Origin: a bacterium HR19 | Lineage (GTDB): Bacteria > Calescibacteriota > Calescibacteriia > Calescibacteriales > Calescibacteriaceae | Assembly (NCBI GenBank): GCA_002898315.1 | Contig: BEHV01000005.1 | Coordinates: 8,859-72,858, forward strand | DNA: 64,000 bases | Reading direction: 5' to 3' | Shown here: piece by piece, positions 4,181 through 46,852 of the stretch | How positions within the stretch are numbered: position 1 is the first letter of the stretch | Layout of the letters: every line of letters begins with the position of its first letter | The notes under the pieces: generated by a model | What the model saw: the letters and a program-made list of their open reading frames with translations, nothing else | What the model was told of the DNA's origin: nothing | Database searches by the model: none | Translations under genes and position numbers: made by a program

Positions 4181-4380
4181 AATGCTTTACCTCCTTTTTA
4201 TTTTGCCATGATAAAAAAATTAATCTCTAAAACCTTTCATACAAAAAAATAAAAATGCTCAATAAATAAAAGTGATTTGCTAAATAAGAACAACATAATA
4301 ATAAAAACCCGAAATCGTATCTAAAATTCAGGAAATTTCACTTTTCACATAAAAGATAGGGGAGAAAAATTCTCGGCTTT

Positions 4381-4770
4381 TTATTCTATACCTTTTAACC
4401 TAAGCAGATTTCCTACCTTTGATAAAAACATGTCTATTTTTACCGGTTTGGTAAAATAGAGGTCTGCTCCTGCCTCAAAGGCGATCTGCATATCTTTCTC
4501 TCCCGCCTCAGTAGAAACGATTACAACAGGTGAATCTTTATACCTTGCAGTCTTTCTCAACCTTCTCACAAACGATATTCCATCAAGACCTGGCATGTTT
4601 ATATCAACAACAAAGAGTTTCACATCGTGCTCCAGTGATTTTTCTATCGCATCTATTCCATCTACCGCTTCTACTGGCTCAAAGCCAAGCTTCCTCACCA
4701 TGTTTGAAATTATCTTCCTCACTATCTCCGAATCATCTACAACAAGTGCTATTTTTTTGTTCCCCTCCAT
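4381..4770 (-). CDS. single-domain response regulator (CheY-like)
   Basis: VVDDS, DINMPGLDG phospho-acceptor, TKP motif. Confidence 0.9.
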   Translation of the reverse strand: MEGNKKIALVVDDSEIVRKIISNMVRKLGFEPVEAVDGIDAIEKSLEHDVKLFVVDINMPGLDGISFVRRLRKTARYKDSPVVIVSTEAGEKDMQIAFEAGADLYFTKPVKIDMFLSKVGNLLRLKGIE

Positions 4771-4922
4771 AGTTTCTATTTTTCGGAAATAAAAAAATTT
4801 TAAGAAGAAAAAAACAAAGGCAACTACAATAAATTTTAATCAAAGATCATAAAAAATTATGATTGATGAAAAATCACCTGAAAGATAAAAATAGAGAGCA
4901 ATAAAATTTAAAATCTCAAAAT

Positions 4923-6239
4923 ATGGGGAAGAAAAAGTTCAAGATTGGAGTTGTCGGGGCTGGATATGTGGGACTCGTGACATCATCATGTCTTGCTGAA
5001 CTCGGACACAATGTGATATGCTATGATAAAGATAAAGAAAAAATAAGAGAACTCAACAAAGGGAAAAGTCCAATATATGAGCCGGGATTAGAAGAACTGA
5101 TAAAAAATAATCTTGGGAGAAAACTTAATTTCACCGATAGAGCAGAAGATATATATCCGGAAAGCGAAGTTATTTTCATATGCGTTGGAACTCCTTCTTC
5201 GCAAGATGGAAAGCCCGATATGTCTTATGTTGAAACATGCGCTATTGAACTTGCAAAATTTATTACCGACTATAAACTCGTTGTGGAAAAAAGCACAGTC
5301 CCGATAAGAACAGCGGAGTGGATAGAAAGAACGATAAAACTTTACAACCCAAAAGCGAATTTTGATGTCGCGTCTAATCCGGAGTTTTTACGCGAAGGTT
5401 CCGGAATACACGACTTTTTTCAACCCGATAGAATAGTCATAGGAGTAAATTCTGAGAAGGCAAAAGAAATACTGCTTCAGATATACAACGATGATGATTT
5501 CAAGTGTCCAAAACTCATAACAGATGTGAAAACCGCAGAGGCAATAAAGCATGCTTCAAACTCTTTTTTAGCTCTCAAAATCTCATACATAAATATGGTT
5601 GCAGATTTTTGCGAGAAGGCAGGGATAGACGTAGATCTGGTAGCAGAAGGTATGGGACTTGACAAAAGGATAGGAAGAAGTTTCCTGAAAGCGGGATTAG
5701 GATGGGGGGGAAGTTGCTTCCCAAAAGATGTCAAGGCGTTCGTAAAAATGGCAGAAGACCTGCAAGTTGATTTCTCAATACTCAAAGAAGCATACAGAGT
5801 CAATGAAAGAAGAATAGAGGTTTTCATAAAGAAGGTGAAAGATGCTCTCTGGGTCATAAAGGGAAAAAGGATTGCTGTATGGGGGCTTTCTTTCAAGCCG
5901 AACACCGATGATATAAGAGAGTCACCCGCACTCAAAATAATTCCCTTACTTCTCAACGATGGTGCATTCCTTTCTTTGTATGACCCGAAAGCTATGGAAA
6001 ACGCAAAAAAAATCTTCCCCCCATCAGATAAAGTCCACTATGCTAACTCCCTTGAGGAATCTGTAATAGGTGCCCACGCTCTCGCAATAATAACAGATTG
6101 GGATGAATTCAAAAATGCAGACCTCAACAGAATAAAAGACCTTATGCTAACTCACATAATAATTGATGGAAGAAATATCTTTGACCCGAAAAAAGTGAGA
6201 GAAATGGGATTTTTATACTACCCTATGGGAAAGCCATAA
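4923..6239 (+). CDS. ugd: UDP-glucose/GDP-mannose 6-dehydrogenase
   Basis: GAGYVG, SNPEFLREG, GGSCFPKD catalytic Cys, FKPNTDDIRES, DGRN. Confidence 0.93.
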   Translation: MGKKKFKIGVVGAGYVGLVTSSCLAELGHNVICYDKDKEKIRELNKGKSPIYEPGLEELIKNNLGRKLNFTDRAEDIYPESEVIFICVGTPSSQDGKPDMSYVETCAIELAKFITDYKLVVEKSTVPIRTAEWIERTIKLYNPKANFDVASNPEFLREGSGIHDFFQPDRIVIGVNSEKAKEILLQIYNDDDFKCPKLITDVKTAEAIKHASNSFLALKISYINMVADFCEKAGIDVDLVAEGMGLDKRIGRSFLKAGLGWGGSCFPKDVKAFVKMAEDLQVDFSILKEAYRVNERRIEVFIKKVKDALWVIKGKRIAVWGLSFKPNTDDIRESPALKIIPLLLNDGAFLSLYDPKAMENAKKIFPPSDKVHYANSLEESVIGAHALAIITDWDEFKNADLNRIKDLMLTHIIIDGRNIFDPKKVREMGFLYYPMGKP

Positions 6240-6254
6240 ATTTTTACGATTTAT

Positions 6255-6329
6255 GTGCCTGTAGTTCAGAGGAAGAACGCCGGACTCCGGATCCGGAGGT
6301 CGCGGGTTCAAGTCCCGCCAGGCACGCCA
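6255..6329 (+). tRNA. tRNA-Arg(CCG)
   Basis: GTGCCTG/CAGGCAC acceptor stem, anticodon arm CCGGA-CTCCGGA-TCCGG, GTTCAAGTC, encoded CCA. Confidence 0.95.
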
Positions 6330-6340
6330 AAAATGTCTGG

Positions 6341-7246
6341 ATGGAACAAGAAAAACAAATCAAAATCGTAGAAGTATCACCAAGAGACGGACTTCAAAAC
6401 GAAAAAGAAATACTTCCACCAGAGAAGAAAAAAGAACTCATAGAATCACTCTGTGAAACTGGGGTTGATGAAATAGAGGTTGGTTCTTTTGTCTCTCCAA
6501 AAGCAGTCCCTCAGATGAAAGATACAGATAACCTCCTGCTTATGATAAACAAAAAAAACGGAGTGAAATTTTCTGTCCTGATACCAAATATGAAAGGATT
6601 TGAAAGGATGATGAACATACCCGAGTCAAAAAGACCGGAAAAAATAGCGGTATTCACAGCAGCATCAGATACATTCAACCTGAAAAACATAAACGCAACA
6701 GTAGAAGATTCTTTTAAAATTATAAAACCAGTTATAGAGGAGGCGAAAAAACTTAAATTTGAGGTGAGAGCTTATATTTCAACTGCATTCTGGTGTCCCT
6801 TTGAAGGAAAGGTAAAGCCAGAAAAAGTCATATATGTAGCAGAAAAATTATTTGAGCTCGGAGTAGATGAGGTTTCTGTTGGAGATACGATAGGCAGGGC
6901 TTCTCCGAAAGATGTCTCCGAACTTCTTTCTCTGCTCTTGAAGAAGATCAGCCGAGATAAAATAGCTCTTCACTTCCATAACACATACGGAATGGCTGTT
7001 TTGAACTCTTTCATATCATTCAGAGATTTTGGAATAAGAACTTTTGATAGTTCTGCTGGGGGACTTGGCGGATGTCCATTCGCTCCCGGAGCTTCCGGGA
7101 ATGTCGCAACAGAAGACCTCATCTTTATGTTTGAAAACTCGGGAGTAAAAACAGGGGTTGATTTCAAAAAGGTCATGTCAGCTGTTTTAAAGCTTGAAAT
7201 TCCTCTGAGATCCTCACTCTCAAAAATCCAAAAAATAATTGAGTAA
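6341..7246 (+). CDS. hydroxymethylglutaryl-CoA lyase
   Basis: EVSPRDGLQNE, LHFHNTYG, GGLGGCPFAPGASGNVATEDL. Confidence 0.92.
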   Translation: MEQEKQIKIVEVSPRDGLQNEKEILPPEKKKELIESLCETGVDEIEVGSFVSPKAVPQMKDTDNLLLMINKKNGVKFSVLIPNMKGFERMMNIPESKRPEKIAVFTAASDTFNLKNINATVEDSFKIIKPVIEEAKKLKFEVRAYISTAFWCPFEGKVKPEKVIYVAEKLFELGVDEVSVGDTIGRASPKDVSELLSLLLKKISRDKIALHFHNTYGMAVLNSFISFRDFGIRTFDSSAGGLGGCPFAPGASGNVATEDLIFMFENSGVKTGVDFKKVMSAVLKLEIPLRSSLSKIQKIIE

Positions 7247-7247
7247 G

Positions 7248-8327
7248 ATGATAGACGAGAGAGAAATAAAATCCCTTCTCAAAAAGCTCATAAGAATAAG
7301 GAGTGTATCGGGTCATGAAGGAGATATTTTAAAATTCATCAACTCTATTCTCTCTGACATCGGTTATAATACTGCAAAGATTTTCATTGAGAAAGGAAAA
7401 AGAGAACGATATAATCTTGTATGTGGAGATGGAGAGGTAGGAATATGCGCGCATGTTGACACTGTACCAGAACTCGGAATGAAAAACGCTTTTTCACCAT
7501 ACGAAAAAAATGGTATAATATACGGGCGAGGAAGCTCAGATAACAAAGGTTCAATCGCTGGACTCATATTATCTTTATATCACTACAAAAAGGTCGCAAA
7601 AAAGCTCCCAAAATTGTTTATCGCATTTACAGTAGATGAAGAAGAGTGGACTGCGGACGGAGCAAAAAAGCTGATAGAGCATCTTGACGGTCTGAAAGAG
7701 ATGATAGTGCTTGAACCCACAGACCTCAAAATATGCACAGAACAAGAAGGTTCTTTTGAGTTTGAATTAGAGGTTGAAGCCAATCTCTCTGCACACGCTT
7801 CATTTTTTGAAAAATACCATAACCCAATAAAAATACTCTTTCATGCGATTGAGAAAATAGAAAAAGATTTGAAGAGAAAAACTAACATTCTGGAAATAAG
7901 CGGAGGGTGGAGATACTACGCTGTTCCAAAAAACGCAAAGTCCCTCGTTGAAATAAAAATGAAAAAAGGAGAAAAAAAAGAGTGGATTGAAAACAGAATA
8001 AAAGAGATGATAAAATCTGAATCAAAAAAATTTGAAAATACCAGAATAAACTTCAAAATCATAGATATTGAAGAATACTTAATCTTCAAAAAGGGAAAAC
8101 TTGTAGAGAGATTAGAAAAAGCTTTTCGTAAAGAAGGATTAGCTCCCGCGTTCGGAGTTATGACTTCGTGGACCGAAGCTGCAGAGTTCCACAAGGCAGG
8201 TATTGAGTGTGTTGTGTTCGGTCCAGGAAACCTTGAACACTCACATACAGATAAAGAACACATAAAAATAAAAGATATAAAGACATTCTCAGAAATTCTC
8301 CTCAACCTTTTTGTGCTTTACCTTTGA
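7248..8327 (+). CDS. M20/M25/M40 family metallohydrolase (ArgE/DapE-like)
   Basis: AHVDTVP, YGRGSSDNKG, DEEE, EPT, GPG..HSHT..E; ATG at 7248 preferred over TTG at 7239. Confidence 0.88.
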   Translation: MIDEREIKSLLKKLIRIRSVSGHEGDILKFINSILSDIGYNTAKIFIEKGKRERYNLVCGDGEVGICAHVDTVPELGMKNAFSPYEKNGIIYGRGSSDNKGSIAGLILSLYHYKKVAKKLPKLFIAFTVDEEEWTADGAKKLIEHLDGLKEMIVLEPTDLKICTEQEGSFEFELEVEANLSAHASFFEKYHNPIKILFHAIEKIEKDLKRKTNILEISGGWRYYAVPKNAKSLVEIKMKKGEKKEWIENRIKEMIKSESKKFENTRINFKIIDIEEYLIFKKGKLVERLEKAFRKEGLAPAFGVMTSWTEAAEFHKAGIECVVFGPGNLEHSHTDKEHIKIKDIKTFSEILLNLFVLYL

Positions 8328-8329
8328 AA

Positions 8330-9775
8330 TCACTCTCCCAAAGTTATATCTGCTGATATAATTGAAGAAATATATTTCCCTTCGTTTTCTTCTCCTGATT
8401 GAAGTGTCTTTTGAAGTTCCTCTGCCATTTTTTTCTGTTCATCTACTCCGTACCGAGATAAGTCAAATGTCCAAGGACCGAGAACAATAAACCCTCCATC
8501 TGGAAACATTATCTCTCCTTTTTCTCCGTAAGTGAGTTTATCAAGAGGTAAAAGCCCGATATAATTTATATCTCTTCTTGTTCTTTTATCTCTTCCCGTT
8601 ATTGCTGTCTGTCCGTCAAAAGATATATCAAAAAGATTACCAACCATCATAGGATTTATGTTATATTTTATGCTTTTTTGCCTTATCTGGATTTTCTGAA
8701 ATTCACACTTTTTCTCTCCGGGTAGAAAAAGTGCTTGATGAGGATTTGTGCATCCGATATAGTAGTTCTGCTGTATGCTACCCATGGTTGAGCCAAGCCA
8801 CTCAAGAGGTTGCCAGTAGCCAAGTCCTCCCGTAGTAGCCCAAGCTCCGGAATTCGCATCGGGTTGAAGCAGGACATCGCACCCCTTCTTATCAAGCTCA
8901 TAAATGTACTCGGGAACAAAAGCATCTAAACTTATTGCAATACATAAATCAATTTCAGTCCCAGGAATTCTGAAAACAGTTAATTCTTCATATTTTCCAG
9001 ATGAGAGACTGAGAAGCTGAACCTCGGTGGGAACAAGATTCACCTTCTTTGTCTGATGAACTATTTTACCTTCTGGCGAGAAAATGAAGCAAGAATTCCA
9101 GACATCTGATGTTGTAGCTTTGTAGAAAAATTCACTTTGCACAAGGTCATCTACAAAGTCCGAAATTTTTCCTTCTCTCTCCTGTGTAATATACGGATAT
9201 GGAGAATCTTGACACGAGACCACCCATACCCCATAGCTTTTCGCAAAATATGAAAATGTGTTGAAAAAAATTCTCCACATCGTATCTGTAAGAGCTAAAA
9301 ATATCTGTCTCCCAAGCATAGTTGAGATTTCTGGAAAATTTTGAGTATAGTAGCTTATTGCATTTGACCATTTTTGAGATATAGAAGATGCTGCTACAAG
9401 TAAATTCTTCTCCTTTCTCGCTTCTTTACCTCTCTCTCCGAAGAAAATCAGAGGCAGTCCTGCGTGCTCCTCAAAAACAACAACATTTTGGTATTTTTTA
9501 GAAAAATAAGGTTTTATGAACTGAATAAACTTCTCATATGATGTGCGGAATTTCTCTTCGCTTTCAAGGTCTTCTATGTCAAACTTGTGTCCAATTGCAA
9601 AAGCTCTTATTGATTTTTCAGGAGCAAAAGATTCGTCGTATCTGGACATAAAAACAAACCTATCACCATCTTGAAAAACCCCTTCCGATTTTATACTCTC
9701 TTCTTCTTTTTTAGCGCACGATAAAAAAATCAATAGTAGCAGAAAAGAAATAAGCTCTCTTTTTGACATAATCAA
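8330..9775 (-). CDS. carbon-nitrogen hydrolase (nitrilase-superfamily) lipoprotein
   Basis: Lipobox IFLSC; VVVFEEH (Glu), WNSCFIFSPEG...TKKVNLVP (Lys), AISLDAFVPE at the nucleophile position. Confidence 0.7.
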   Translation of the reverse strand: MIMSKRELISFLLLLIFLSCAKKEEESIKSEGVFQDGDRFVFMSRYDESFAPEKSIRAFAIGHKFDIEDLESEEKFRTSYEKFIQFIKPYFSKKYQNVVVFEEHAGLPLIFFGERGKEARKEKNLLVAASSISQKWSNAISYYTQNFPEISTMLGRQIFLALTDTMWRIFFNTFSYFAKSYGVWVVSCQDSPYPYITQEREGKISDFVDDLVQSEFFYKATTSDVWNSCFIFSPEGKIVHQTKKVNLVPTEVQLLSLSSGKYEELTVFRIPGTEIDLCIAISLDAFVPEYIYELDKKGCDVLLQPDANSGAWATTGGLGYWQPLEWLGSTMGSIQQNYYIGCTNPHQALFLPGEKKCEFQKIQIRQKSIKYNINPMMVGNLFDISFDGQTAITGRDKRTRRDINYIGLLPLDKLTYGEKGEIMFPDGGFIVLGPWTFDLSRYGVDEQKKMAEELQKTLQSGEENEGKYISSIISADITLGE

Positions 9776-43787: not shown

Positions 43788-44333
43788 CTAAGCTGGCTTG
43801 AAATCTGGACAGGAAACCTGAAGCGTCTCTGCTGAAAGTTTTTTCTTCAAAAACAAGCAATACATATCGTGAAAATAAACACACGAAAAACACATCTTCT
43901 GCGGAGAAATAAGCCCTTTTTCTTGCATCAGCTTTGCAAGATTCATGAGTAAAACAAGAAACTGATGTTTCTCACTCCTTCTGAGGTGTGAAATTGACTC
44001 CGAAAAAACCGAATACCAGTTCAAACTTTTTGCTAACTCTCTCCCAGCATTTGTGAGAGAAATCATCTTGAACCTTCTGTCGGTTTTTCCCTCGTAAATG
44101 ATTATAAGTTTTTTTCGTGAAAGAGCTTTCAGTGCAGAATTACATGCAGAATGCTTGACATTAACCTCACTTACAACCTCCTTTATACTTGCTTCCCCTT
44201 TCCTCAGAAGGTATGTGATTATCTTAGCTTGAAGAGGGCTTAAATTGTTTTGAATCGCAATATCTCGCACAACCTTCTCAAAAGCAATCCATAACCTCTC
44301 CAAAATAAAAAGAACCTTCCATTCTATATCCAT
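43788..44333 (-). CDS. MarR-family transcriptional regulator with C-terminal 4-Cys domain
   Basis: LSPLQAKII, wHTH, DRR wing, LTNAGR; C-terminal MCFSCVYF..YC...SCPDF. Confidence 0.85.
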   Translation of the reverse strand: MDIEWKVLFILERLWIAFEKVVRDIAIQNNLSPLQAKIITYLLRKGEASIKEVVSEVNVKHSACNSALKALSRKKLIIIYEGKTDRRFKMISLTNAGRELAKSLNWYSVFSESISHLRRSEKHQFLVLLMNLAKLMQEKGLISPQKMCFSCVYFHDMYCLFLKKKLSAETLQVSCPDFKPA

Positions 44334-44355
44334 AAAAATTTCCCCAAACAAATTT

Positions 44356-45045
44356 CTATTTATTTATGGAATCAACGGAATTCAAAAGTACACAAACATT
44401 ACTCCAAATACTACCATCTTTTTCTCTCACTATCTTTTCAATATCGCTTGCTATCTCATACGAATTCATCTCAACAGGAAACATAAGTTCAGCGTAGCCC
44501 CTATCATCTACCAAAACCGCATAGCTTGAGTGCTCTATTTCCCCATCTCCTGTAACCACAGCCTCTATGCCAAGAGCACTTGCTACTTTATTTAACTCTT
44601 TTTTTGGAAGTAATTTCCATGAAAAATTCTCATTAAAACTCTTCACATACTTTCCCATTCTCTCGGGAGTGTCGTTTTCAGGGTCAAGTCCAACCATAAC
44701 GACCCTGACTATTCTCCGAGTTTTGTCATCAAGTAAAGAATAAGCATCTGCTAACTTTTTCATCATAATAGAGCAAACACTGCGACAACCTGTGTATCCA
44801 AAATACAAAATCAAGAATTTCCCCGAGTATTCATCAAAATAACTTATCTTTTTTCTTTCGGCAAACTTAAAACCATTCAGTTTTCTATCGCAATATGAAC
44901 TTTTATAGAACTTCGCAAGTGAGAAAAAGAAGAACAGAAAAGCTCCCCCCAGAAAGAGGAAAAGGAAAATATTTTTAAACACATCTTTTTTCCGCAAATG
45001 TTTTTCTCTCTCTATGTTTTTCCGTTTTATGAATATCATAAGCAA
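44356..45045 (-). CDS. SCO1/SenC family copper chaperone
   Basis: TM anchor, YFGYTGCRSVC (CxxxC), DPENDTPE, IEHSS His ligand. Confidence 0.9.
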   Translation of the reverse strand: MLMIFIKRKNIEREKHLRKKDVFKNIFLFLFLGGAFLFFFFSLAKFYKSSYCDRKLNGFKFAERKKISYFDEYSGKFLILYFGYTGCRSVCSIMMKKLADAYSLLDDKTRRIVRVVMVGLDPENDTPERMGKYVKSFNENFSWKLLPKKELNKVASALGIEAVVTGDGEIEHSSYAVLVDDRGYAELMFPVEMNSYEIASDIEKIVREKDGSIWSNVCVLLNSVDSINK

Positions 45046-45077
45046 TCTCTCTCCATCTGGGGGGAGCTGTATATGTT

Positions 45078-45500
45078 TTATGGTATGACAGAGAACGAAC
45101 CGGGAAGATGGATGTTTTTCGGATGTAGCTTACACCATATCGTATATGAGCCGGGCTTTGATGCCTTGAACTTTACTTCCTTTGTTTCCTTTGCTTTCAG
45201 TGTTGTATCAACATCATATCCCTCAATAGAGTAGTTCTCACTTATAGGTGATTCATTAACTATCTTGATATTCACAGTATCTCCCACTCTCGCAACGAGG
45301 TTTTCGGGTTCATTCAGCACATTGAACTGCCTCACATTTTTTATCATCACTCCTTCTATCGTGGCTTCGGGGATTGTGGTATCGTATGCTCTGATATAAA
45401 CGGTGAAGTTAAGTTCTTTTCCTCTTTCCGCTGATGCCGATAGCCAGAGACCTGCTATAATTAATCCAACACCTAAAAACAATAGTGCTACCTTGTTCAT
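45078..45500 (-). CDS. ncyA: nitrosocyanin (red copper cupredoxin)
   Basis: Signal peptide ending ASA; AYDTTIPE, FNVLNEPE, SPISE (Glu ligand), TIWCKLHPKNIHLPG (Cys/His/His ligands) match nitrosocyanin as recalled; AAGGAGG RBS. Confidence 0.88.
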   Translation of the reverse strand: MNKVALLFLGVGLIIAGLWLSASAERGKELNFTVYIRAYDTTIPEATIEGVMIKNVRQFNVLNEPENLVARVGDTVNIKIVNESPISENYSIEGYDVDTTLKAKETKEVKFKASKPGSYTIWCKLHPKNIHLPGSFSVIP

Positions 45501-45526
45501 AAGTTTGCACCTCCTTATTTATTTTT

Positions 45527-45559
45527 AACTTCAAAATAAATATTTACAACTTCAAAATA
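45527..45559 (-). promoter_or_regulatory. candidate operator: 12-bp direct repeat TATTTTGAAGTT, 21-bp period, upstream of ncyA
   Basis: AACTTCAAAATA at 45527-45538 and 45548-45559 on the + strand. Confidence 0.45.
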
Positions 45560-45647
45560 TTTTCACAAAAAACAAAAAATTTCCCTCCTGAATTCTCTTC
45601 TTAACTAAAAAACTTCTCCTAAAAAATAAAATATAAGATGGAAGCTT

Positions 45648-46415
45648 GTGAACTTCACTATGGATAACGAGATTATAATAAAAGTAGAGAATCTGTGGAA
45701 ATACTTTGACGGGAAGCCCGTTCTCAAAAACATAAATGCAGAGATAGAAAAAGGGAAAATAACGGTGGTTATGGGAAGGTCCGGATGTGGAAAAACTGTT
45801 CTTATGAAAAATATAGTGGGGATTTTAAAACCAGAAAAAGGGAAAATTATTTTTGAAGGGCGAGTTATAAACGAATTATCTGGTGAGGAAAAACTTGAAA
45901 TTATTCAGAATTTTGGTTTTCTATTTCAGAACTCTGCTCTATTTGACTGGCTTACAGTAGAAGAAAACATCGCATTTCCTCTCGTTGAGATAAACAGAAT
46001 AAAAGACAAAAACATAATAAAAGAGAAGGTATATCAGTTAATTGAAATTATAGGGTTAAAGGGGCATGAGAAAAAATATCCTGCCGAGCTATCTGGTGGG
46101 ATGCAAAAAAGGACTGCACTTGCGAGAGCTATAATTCACAACCCCAAAATAGTCATTTTAGATGAACCAACTTCTGGAATTGATCCGGCGACTTCTTCTT
46201 CTATTGAAGAGCTAATACTTGACCTCAAAAAAAGATTTGGCTCAACATTTCTTGTTATAACGCACGACATAAAAAGCGCAATAAGACTCGCAGATAAAAT
46301 AATATTTATGAAAGACGGAGAAATAATATGGCAGGGAAAACCGCAGGAGATAGTAAATCAAAAAGAAGAAGAAATAAGAATTTTTCTCAAACGTCTTGAA
46401 TTCTCGCAAGATTGA
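45648..46415 (+). CDS. ABC transporter ATP-binding protein, MlaF/Mkl family
   Basis: GRSGCGKT, FQNSALFDWLTVEENI, PAELSGGMQKR, LDEPTSGIDP, ITHD. Confidence 0.85.
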   Translation: MNFTMDNEIIIKVENLWKYFDGKPVLKNINAEIEKGKITVVMGRSGCGKTVLMKNIVGILKPEKGKIIFEGRVINELSGEEKLEIIQNFGFLFQNSALFDWLTVEENIAFPLVEINRIKDKNIIKEKVYQLIEIIGLKGHEKKYPAELSGGMQKRTALARAIIHNPKIVILDEPTSGIDPATSSSIEELILDLKKRFGSTFLVITHDIKSAIRLADKIIFMKDGEIIWQGKPQEIVNQKEEEIRIFLKRLEFSQD

Positions 46416-46420
46416 AAAGA

Positions 46421-46852
46421 TCACCTTGATGAATTTAGCAGATCTTGATACCACTTTTTCAGTTCTTCTTCCGGAATTTCTTTTTTCAGGTGGGAGAGAA
46501 ATTCTGCCAAGATCTTTAACTCTTCATCACTCCCCTTCCACTTCACTTTATGTTTTCTTCCTTTTTCGTTTTCTATTTCCTTTTTGAGCCATTTTTGAAT
46601 CCATTCACTATCACGCCTCAAGCCAACTCCCGAATGATCTATTATTTTCCTTCCTTTGAGAAGAGATTCCTTTTGTGGTTCTATTCCTTCGGATTTTATG
46701 GAGTGGCATTTTGTACAGTTCTCCCGGGTGAAAAGTTCTTTACCATCATCACCCATCAGTTTCTCTATCAGAAGAAGAAAGAAAGATACACAAAAAATAA
46801 AAATATTAAGAGAGTGATATTTTTTGTTTCCCTTCCAGATATTCTGCATCAT
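46421..46852 (-). CDS. monoheme cytochrome c
   Basis: Hydrophobic leader, DGKELF...CTKCH heme motif, WIQKWL. Confidence 0.85.
   Translation of the reverse strand: MMQNIWKGNKKYHSLNIFIFCVSFFLLLIEKLMGDDGKELFTRENCTKCHSIKSEGIEPQKESLLKGRKIIDHSGVGLRRDSEWIQKWLKKEIENEKGRKHKVKWKGSDEELKILAEFLSHLKKEIPEEELKKWYQDLLNSSR

Follow-up and report, generated by a model that had tools for sequence, protein, structure and literature searches.

Nitrosocyanin, a red copper protein, is among the most abundant proteins of ammonia-oxidizing bacteria (AOB) (PMC5960693) and has been proposed as the missing enzyme that converts nitric oxide (NO) to nitrite, a proposal that is disputed (PMC13170337, PMC13746201). Why would a hot-spring bacterium that looks like a denitrifier carry its gene, and why do a copper chaperone and a transcription factor follow it? 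The question is raised by a 64,000-nt stretch of contig BEHV01000005.1 (positions 8,859 to 72,858) of bacterium HR19 (assembly GCA_002898315.1), referred to here as the window. Within 43788-45560 of the window lie three co-oriented minus-strand open reading frames (ORFs): ncyA, which encodes nitrosocyanin, a paralog of the SCO copper chaperones, and a MarR-family regulator with a cysteine-rich tail. The original prediction, made from the sequence alone, read them as a copper/redox module. We put about equal weight for and against the reading that the 43788-45500 region is a three-gene operon of a hot-spring denitrifier, presumably transcribed as one unit, in which an Fe-S MarR protein responsive to NO or redox state controls a periplasmic nitrosocyanin that has its own SCO protein.

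Identification of the three gene products

Re-measurement of the ORFs agrees with the predicted tight packing of the genes, with gaps of about 32 and 22 nt behind a strong ribosome-binding site. The ncyA gene (45078..45500, minus strand) encodes 140 residues. The SCO ORF (45045..44356, minus strand) opens at a TTG, and a likelier start is the ATG at 45039, which gives the 227-residue protein of 44356..45039 and agrees with both the same-genus ortholog and a 227-residue database gene call (P0295). The MarR ORF (44351..43788, minus strand) also opens at a TTG; its likelier ATG at 44333 gives the 181-residue regulator of 43788..44333, in agreement with a 181-residue database gene call (P0121). 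The ncyA stop codon is 32 nt from the TTG at 45045 and 38 nt from the ATG at 45039, and 22 nt separate the SCO stop codon from the MarR ATG. A strong Shine-Dalgarno sequence, AAGGAGGTG (45508..45516, minus strand), was read 7 nt ahead of the ncyA ATG.

NcyA matches the NCBIfam equivalog model for nitrosocyanin (TIGR03096) with 166.3 bits against a cut-off of 142.85, over model positions 12-134 of 135. Residues 29-139 align without gaps to residues 1-111 of the Nitrosomonas europaea crystal chain 1iby_A (E = 5.7e-42). The copper ligands of that structure, Glu60, Cys95, His98, and His103, are kept as E88, C123, H126, and H131. Across 19 NcyA sequences from AOB and other hosts, E88, C123, and H131 never vary, and H126 shows at least 90% conservation. 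The ligand types described for nitrosocyanin copper are two His, one Cys, water, and an axial Glu (PMC3603459). A Sec-type signal peptide covering about residues 1-24 (...SASA/ER) can be read from the sequence. By these criteria NcyA is a true nitrosocyanin: it is 51-55% identical to the named AOB nitrosocyanins and shares the ligand positions and the signal peptide with the N. europaea protein (PDB 1IBY). What differs is the setting. The host has no detected AmoA or HAO-type cytochrome and is denitrifier-like, and ncyA is grouped here with SCO and regulator genes, an arrangement shown by 0 of 69 AOB loci.

The second protein belongs to the SCO1/SenC family (PF02630; 73.7 bits, gathering threshold 22.8, E = 1.8e-20). 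Its copper motif consists of C85-R-S-V-C89 and H170; all three ligand residues are invariant in 8 aligned SCO proteins, so the predicted CxxxC and His are indeed intact. The sequence predicts a basic N terminus, one transmembrane helix at about residues 24-44, and a periplasmic thioredoxin-fold domain, and there is a weak match to PF13905. The protein is highly divergent; a word-index protein search returned only 3 relatives. The SCO1/SenC/PrrC chaperones of CuA centers (PF02630; the Sco proteins of Bacillus subtilis and Streptomyces lividans) share with it the thioredoxin-fold family, the CxxxC plus His triad, and a membrane anchor or lipobox that places the domain in the periplasm. The presumed client of the window protein differs, being a mononuclear red-copper cupredoxin and not a binuclear CuA center, and the window protein is a very divergent extra paralog beside the SCO of a heme-copper enzyme cluster. 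Cu(II)-Sco and nitrosocyanin are reported to have similar Cys-to-Cu(II) sites (PMC3603459). A 279-residue SCO relative found in the survey (P0297) carries a CusF-like domain in precomputed Pfam annotation and appears to be a copper-binding module fused to SCO.

The third protein has a MarR winged-helix core (residues 1-138), matching PF12802 (MarR_2) with 30.1 bits against a cut-off of 27 and MepR with a profile E value of 1e-17. The TIGR03096, PF02630, and PF12802 matches, together with the 1iby_A alignment, bear out all three predicted gene identities. The full-length AlphaFold2 model is confident throughout, with a mean predicted local distance difference test score (pLDDT) of 95.5, and Foldseek matched it to many MarR structures with probability 1.00 over only about 138 residues. 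Four of the five cysteines lie within the last 34 residues, and C148, C151, C159, and C175 form the Cys-rich tail that had been predicted.

The host is not an ammonia oxidizer

The host genome is a metagenome-assembled genome (MAG) of 1.88 Mb, 82% complete, with about 37% G+C, in a GTDB phylum of 7 genomes in total. The sole run listed as containing the stretch is a DNA run with the label 'hot springs metagenome', and none of RNA was listed. Protein-family searches did not find AmoA in any of 9 non-AOB ncyA genomes (the host, G003, G401-G405, G408, and G409), and both AOB genomes used as controls were positive. The HAO-type multiheme family (HAO, hydroxylamine oxidoreductase) was not found in the host by a search that lacked a positive control, and no NirK was detected there. 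These results rule out the host as an ammonia oxidizer. The AOB setting implied by the original prediction is not supported, given the AmoA result in 9 of 9 genomes and the finding that neither partner gene adjoins ncyA in 69 AOB loci.

The host encodes a cd1-type NirS (426 bits; cluster at G000:C20:6697-11742, L141-L144) and a Sec-type NosZ (866 bits) with NosD, NosF, NosL, and NosY (cluster L094, G000:C5:108000-127000). A very divergent heme-copper enzyme with a COX1 domain reaches only 82 of the 670 bits set as the cut-off for CtaD. Its cluster (L092, G000:C12:19000-32000; genes at 4309-9127) also holds a CuA-type subunit, a second SCO, and a cytochrome b/4Fe-4S ferredoxin fusion, and the enzyme may be the NO reductase of the host. 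Judged by gene content, the host looks like a denitrifier despite carrying a 'nitrifier' protein. A search without a positive control detected no NirS in five further non-AOB ncyA genomes, and because of this denitrification does not appear to be common to all ncyA hosts.

The window SCO was considered as the general CuA chaperone of the genome and ruled out in that role by the second SCO in the heme-copper enzyme cluster and by NosL in the nos cluster. Of the 7 phylum genomes, the 2 with ncyA are the only ones in which the ncyA-linked paralog was found.

Distribution of nitrosocyanin genes

The nearest relatives of the window NcyA are proteins of unnamed MAGs or of MAGs labeled WOR-3. Counted at one genome per species, relatives of ncyA occur in 102 stretches, and the survey uses the best 80 of these 102. 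AOB-type labels account for 69 of the 80; the other 11 are labeled as the host's own genus, WOR-3, Hydrothermia, Thermodesulfatator, Thermoflexus, one uncultured bacterium, and one Bacteroidota contig. The gene is patchy, being found in 2 of 7 genomes of its own phylum and 6 of 272 of the WOR-3 phylum. A metagenome scan queried with a single protein, not an alignment, returned 4 loci. Nitrosocyanin paired with WOR-3, Thermoflexus, Hydrothermia, or Thermodesulfatator was found in no paper by a literature search that did not extend to subscription journals.

In a quick, unrooted tree of 98 NcyA rows, the 69 AOB rows make up one side of a branch with a Shimodaira-Hasegawa-like approximate likelihood ratio test (SH-aLRT) value of 85. 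The 29 non-AOB rows split into several deep clades; the Thermoflexus sequences fall on the AOB side (starred branch, 99), and the sequences of the window, L017, and L098 form one clade (starred branch, 95). The non-AOB proteins are far more diverse than the AOB ones in this tree. The pattern fits an origin of ncyA outside the nitrifiers but does not prove it.

Two of the loci have peculiarities of their own. The 1174-base contig labeled Bacteroidota (L087) encodes an NcyA and the start of a following protoglobin that are identical to those of Thermoflexus japonica (L089), and the contig is probably mis-binned. In one WOR-3 MAG (L060, 5001-5800), ncyA and the SCO gene behind it both read as frameshifted, with ncyA scoring 112 bits, below the cut-off; either decay or assembly error would account for this.

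SCO and MarR genes adjoin ncyA in several lineages

Hidden Markov models (HMMs) of the partner genes were built from the window genes and run over six-frame translations of the ncyA loci. The non-AOB loci form 9 lineage groups: the host's own genus (window, L012, L096), L013, L014, L015 with L060, L016, L017, L019, the Thermoflexus group (L087-L089, L151, L157, L158), and a high-GC metagenome lineage (L097-L099). An SCO gene stands directly behind ncyA in 7 of the 9 groups, the exceptions being L016 and the Thermoflexus group; besides the window, the adjoining pairs are in L012, L013, L014, L015, L017, L019, L060, and L096-L099. The ncyA stop codon overlaps the SCO start codon as ATGA in L013, L014, L019, and L098. 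This adjacency in seven groups, with overlaps in four lineages, supports the predicted SCO maturation factor dedicated to NcyA.

The MarR protein with the four-cysteine tail (4-Cys MarR) is encoded next to ncyA in 4 of the 9 groups: the own genus, L017, the Thermoflexus group, and the high-GC lineage L097-L099. Its placement varies. The gene is upstream and divergent in Thermodesulfatator (L017), upstream in Thermoflexus (L088 and L089, with kin L151, L157, and L158), and in window-like order in the high-GC lineage. The full trio occurs in 3 of 9 groups, and L016 alone has neither partner. The order is marR-ncyA-protoglobin in Thermoflexus, WOR-3 loci have ncyA-sco alone, and the G+C content of the non-AOB loci spans 26% to 75%. 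Neither SCO (even at E ≤ 10) nor 4-Cys MarR was found adjacent to ncyA in the 69 AOB loci, 56 of which had at least 1 kb on both sides; the same SCO model picked up the host's distant second SCO (E = 1e-9). The linkage that had been proposed for ncyA thus extends beyond close kin, and because the ncyA-sco-marR arrangement recurs in unrelated lineages it is more than chance.

The 4-Cys MarR family and its cargo genes

A word-index protein search with the window MarR returned only 2 relatives. A profile made from seven 4-Cys MarR proteins retrieved 411 representative clusters at E ≤ 1e-30, nearly all of about 200 residues and matched end to end, whose source names say merely 'MarR family'. Members occur in 35 of a sample of 401 diverse genomes, and in 28 of 394 outside the host phylum. 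A Pfam scan of the flanking DNA identified an adjacent cargo gene at 8 of 29 non-kin loci: Hcp/prismane at 3 (two of them within one genus), protoglobin at 3, cytochrome P460 at 1, and a NapC/NirT protein with an HAO-like multiheme cytochrome at 1. The count of 8 is a lower bound, since the flanks span only 1.5-2.5 kb and Pfam called nothing in four high-GC loci.

Each of the 7 genomes of the host phylum has two 4-Cys MarR copies, one of them a long paralog beside housekeeping genes. The other paralog stands behind ncyA-sco in G000 (the host) and G003, behind cytochrome P460 in G001, G002, and G004, and behind neither in G005 and G006. In the ncyA-less sister genomes the cytochrome P460 gene is directly ahead of the regulator gene (L136, 3231-3749; L137, 3107-3610; L138, 1904-2416) and occupies the place of ncyA-sco. 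Cytochrome P460 was not found in the host. The longer paralog of the host (L093, 5984-6694; G000:C10) has 236 residues, ends in a lysine-rich stretch, and has ispG/GcpE and a response regulator gene as neighbors; it is kept in 7 of 7 phylum genomes.

A second sample, of Thermoflexus relatives, contained a 4-Cys MarR in 32 of 401 genomes. Custom HMMs placed protoglobin within 1.5 kb at 28 of the 30 loci returned and ncyA between MarR and protoglobin at 4 of these 30; Pfam confirms the protoglobin in L089. The 4-Cys MarR and protoglobin genes form a nearly fixed pair in L151-L179, the relatives of Thermoflexus genome G404; the pair itself appears to be an undescribed unit of regulator and globin. 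The literature search, again with subscription journals outside its reach, found no paper linking a MarR protein to protoglobin, hcp, or P460.

Linkage to ncyA requires at least 3 changes on starred branches of a quick tree of 48 MarR proteins, in which fragments made two row labels wrong. The ncyA-linked members sit in at least three places of the family tree and therefore point to repeated recruitment to ncyA. As judged from these comparisons, different family members have been paired with ncyA repeatedly, and their other partners bind or convert NO, hydroxylamine, or O2. The original prediction had allowed for metal sensing. A copper sensor is disfavored by the non-ncyA cargo, which consists of heme or Fe-S proteins acting on NO or hydroxylamine and not of copper proteins, and MarR was rejected in that role on the Hcp, protoglobin, cytochrome P460, and multiheme cytochrome genes.

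A four-cysteine tail with a candidate [4Fe-4S] site

The tail domain (residues 140-181, encoded with the stop codon by 43788..43916, minus strand) has the cysteine pattern C148-x2-C151-x7-C159-x15-C175, a candidate [4Fe-4S] site resembling that of high-potential iron-sulfur proteins (HiPIPs). The four cysteines are invariant in 74 full-length family members and in 44 tails. Matches of the MarR protein in the PDB, from profile and Foldseek searches alike, end at about residue 140. The tail has no Pfam family, no solved homolog by sequence, and no family named in the Atlas. A tail profile gave nothing significant against PDB sequences; the ferritin rows (E = 0.06-6) seem spurious, and rows for HiPIP appeared at E = 0.47 and 0.67. 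Modeled alone, the tail reaches a pLDDT of 78, and Foldseek found no match to this model in the PDB.

Exhaustive structure alignment of the tail model against 48,161 chains gave only five matches at Z ≥ 2, all to HiPIP-like [4Fe-4S] proteins (Z = 2.1-3.8). The best is the small subunit of 4-hydroxyphenylacetate decarboxylase (HPAD; 2y8n_B), with Z = 3.8, a root-mean-square deviation of 1.7 over 35 residues, and 29% identity, followed by the benzylsuccinate synthase (BSS) β subunit (Z = 2.7 and 2.6) and two HiPIPs (Z = 2.2 and 2.1). The cysteine spacing of the tail presumably resembles that of HiPIPs. HPAD/BSS-type small subunits are described as resembling HiPIPs and holding [4Fe-4S] clusters (2026 review, PMC13450708). 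HiPIPs and the HiPIP-like small subunits of glycyl radical enzymes (HPAD γ, 2y8n_B; BSS β, 4pkf_B) are thus the sole structural matches of the tail and all hold [4Fe-4S] clusters. They differ from it in that the matches are weak (Z = 2.1-3.8) with no significant sequence similarity, and in that the module is fused here to a transcription factor. Because the weak fold matches agree and the four cysteines are invariant, a [4Fe-4S] cluster is the best guess for what the modeled tail most likely holds.

The characterized regulator nearest to it in design is ArnR of Corynebacterium glutamicum, reported to have a MarR/ArsR-like winged helix and a C-terminal [4Fe-4S] cluster, to lose DNA binding on exposure to NO, and to repress hmp, a gene of NO detoxification (PMC12343034). 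The two share the winged helix, a dimerization helix, and a C-terminal Cys-bearing part, with sensing in the window MarR only predicted (NF041016; PMC12343034). They differ in that the ArnR sensory domain is described as having three cysteines and is likened by its authors to TRAPPC3 (PMC12343034), whereas the window MarR has four cysteines in about 40 residues and HiPIP-like matches. Against the ArnR model NF041016, the window MarR scored 15.6 bits (cut-off 400), with only the helix-turn-helix region, residues 39-129, matching. Other NO-responsive regulators of hcp, hmp, and nirK are NsrR, an Rrf2-family protein that uses an Fe-S cluster, and HcpR of the CRP/FNR family. The kind of target, hcp and NO-handling proteins, is the same as for the window family, and the DNA-binding fold family is different; no Rrf2 or CRP model of Pfam or NCBIfam matched the window MarR at E ≤ 0.1.

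Candidate operator and neighboring genes

Two 19-nt near-palindromic boxes, TATTTTGAAGTTGTAAATA and TATTTTGAAGTTAAAAATA, lie 21 nt apart from start to start at 45520..45559 (minus strand) and end just upstream of the ncyA ribosome-binding site. They are a candidate operator of the MarR protein, a reading that in such AT-rich DNA is only suggestive. The boxes are kept in two same-genus loci, which are too close to be informative. In the kin locus L137, two direct boxes that share the TATTT...AAATA ends are similarly placed before cytochrome P460. No repeats upstream of ncyA were shared by the other lineages. The kin loci L136 and L138 have a perfect 14-nt inverted repeat (AAATAGTTGAAAAA / TTTTTCAACTATTT) upstream of P460.

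Just upstream of the operon are genes for an MlaF-like ABC ATPase (window 45648-46415, plus strand) and a small mono-heme cytochrome c (window 46421-46852, minus strand), and the same-genus locus L012 keeps both in synteny. NcyA could have this cytochrome as its redox partner, but in other lineages the two genes are not linked.

Discussion

The mechanism that we propose begins with export. NcyA would be exported by Sec to the periplasm, the site of NO production by the NirS of the host. The membrane-anchored SCO would be its own maturation factor, most likely supplying the Cys/His/His/Glu site with copper and perhaps also holding the single ligand cysteine of NcyA reduced. MarR with an intact [4Fe-4S] cluster would bind the twin boxes before ncyA and repress the operon, its own gene included. 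Attack of NO (or O2) on the cluster would release MarR from DNA, the operon would turn on upon the appearance of reactive nitrogen oxides, and NcyA would then bind or oxidize NO in the periplasm.

One alternative concerns the nature of the signal. Fe-S clusters are generally O2-labile, and a regulator working by FNR-like cluster loss or as a CxxC thiol switch would sense O2 or general redox state, making the operon an oxic/anoxic switch and NcyA an electron carrier or an oxygen-linked protein. Protoglobin, by far the commonest partner of the family (28 of 30 loci), is described as an oxygen sensor, and the ArnR cluster likewise reacts with O2 (PMC12343034). We consider this unlikely, though not markedly so, on the grounds that Hcp, cytochrome P460, and the NapC/HAO-like pair are enzymes that act on nitrogen oxides and hydroxylamine and that the host produces NO through NirS. 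It is very unlikely that the MarR cysteines sense copper or another metal and induce a cuproprotein with its chaperone. Cys-rich tails can bind Cu(I), and two of the three operon genes are copper-related, but the adjacent non-ncyA cargo of the family contains no copper proteins, the weak fold matches of the tail are exclusively to [4Fe-4S] proteins, and the regulator is cytoplasmic while NcyA and SCO are periplasmic.

The role of SCO and the meaning of the adjacency can be questioned in the same way. SCO proteins act as reductases for CuA sites, and the window SCO, with its thioredoxin fold and weak PF13905 match, might be a thiol-disulfide reductase that keeps or restores C123 of NcyA after oxidation or S-nitrosation, or might serve the CuA of NosZ or the heme-copper enzyme. 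Model chemistry gives this some appeal, the thiolate of a red-copper site being reported as prone to oxidation by nitrite or NO (PMC13746201). The copper-binding CxxxC plus His triad is nevertheless invariant, the CuA enzymes have factors of their own in their clusters, and reductase and donor roles are mutually compatible; we judge a purely alternative role of this kind quite unlikely. Least probable of all, to the point of near dismissal, is that three genes merely travel together on one transferred island. The patchy occurrence of ncyA suggests transfer, and the NcyA proteins of the window, L017, and L098 share a clade. Order and partners nonetheless vary by lineage, from the divergent marR of L017 to marR-ncyA-protoglobin in Thermoflexus and ncyA-sco alone in WOR-3; the ncyA-linked MarR proteins are not one clade, and the loci differ widely in G+C content.

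Several observations weigh against an Fe-S MarR that controls a nitrosocyanin with its own SCO. The tail has only weak fold matches (Z < 4, from a model with pLDDT 78), and its cysteines could equally be a zinc site or a thiol switch. The signal shared by the family could be O2 or redox state, protoglobins being usually described as O2 sensors (PMC6956133). The twin boxes, a candidate operator only, sit in AT-rich DNA. Compared with shuffled sequences there is no excess of promoter-like sites (6 found against 6.6 expected) or of terminator-like sites (2 against 1.2). The Thermoflexus group, L016, and all 69 AOB loci lack an SCO gene next to ncyA, and therefore NcyA can mature without an adjacent SCO. 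The 4-Cys MarR is absent from the five WOR-3/Hydrothermia lineage groups. Host completeness is only 82%, the trees come from quick searches, and one paper calls nitrosocyanin unlikely to be redox-active (PMC13170337).

The operon hints at a role for nitrosocyanin, found here outside the ammonia oxidizers. A broader picture is possible, although as a whole we hold it doubtful: nitrosocyanin would be an NO-handling periplasmic protein of thermophilic non-nitrifiers that ammonia oxidizers acquired later, it would belong to regulons with hcp, protoglobin, and cytochrome P460 under an undescribed class of MarR proteins that sense NO by a HiPIP-like [4Fe-4S] mini-domain, and its partner would be the first SCO dedicated to mononuclear red copper. 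Two leads of wider reach are the regulator family itself, large, unnamed, and probably made up of Fe-S MarR proteins, and what may be a new class of clients for SCO chaperones. The question of nitrosocyanin function dates from 2001. It becomes testable without growing nitrifiers because ncyA occurs without AmoA, the regulator family targets NO and hydroxylamine proteins, and P460 takes the equivalent place in sister genomes. The thermophile proteins should be stable, with the regulator as a read-out of the inducing signal and SCO as a route to copper-loaded NcyA.

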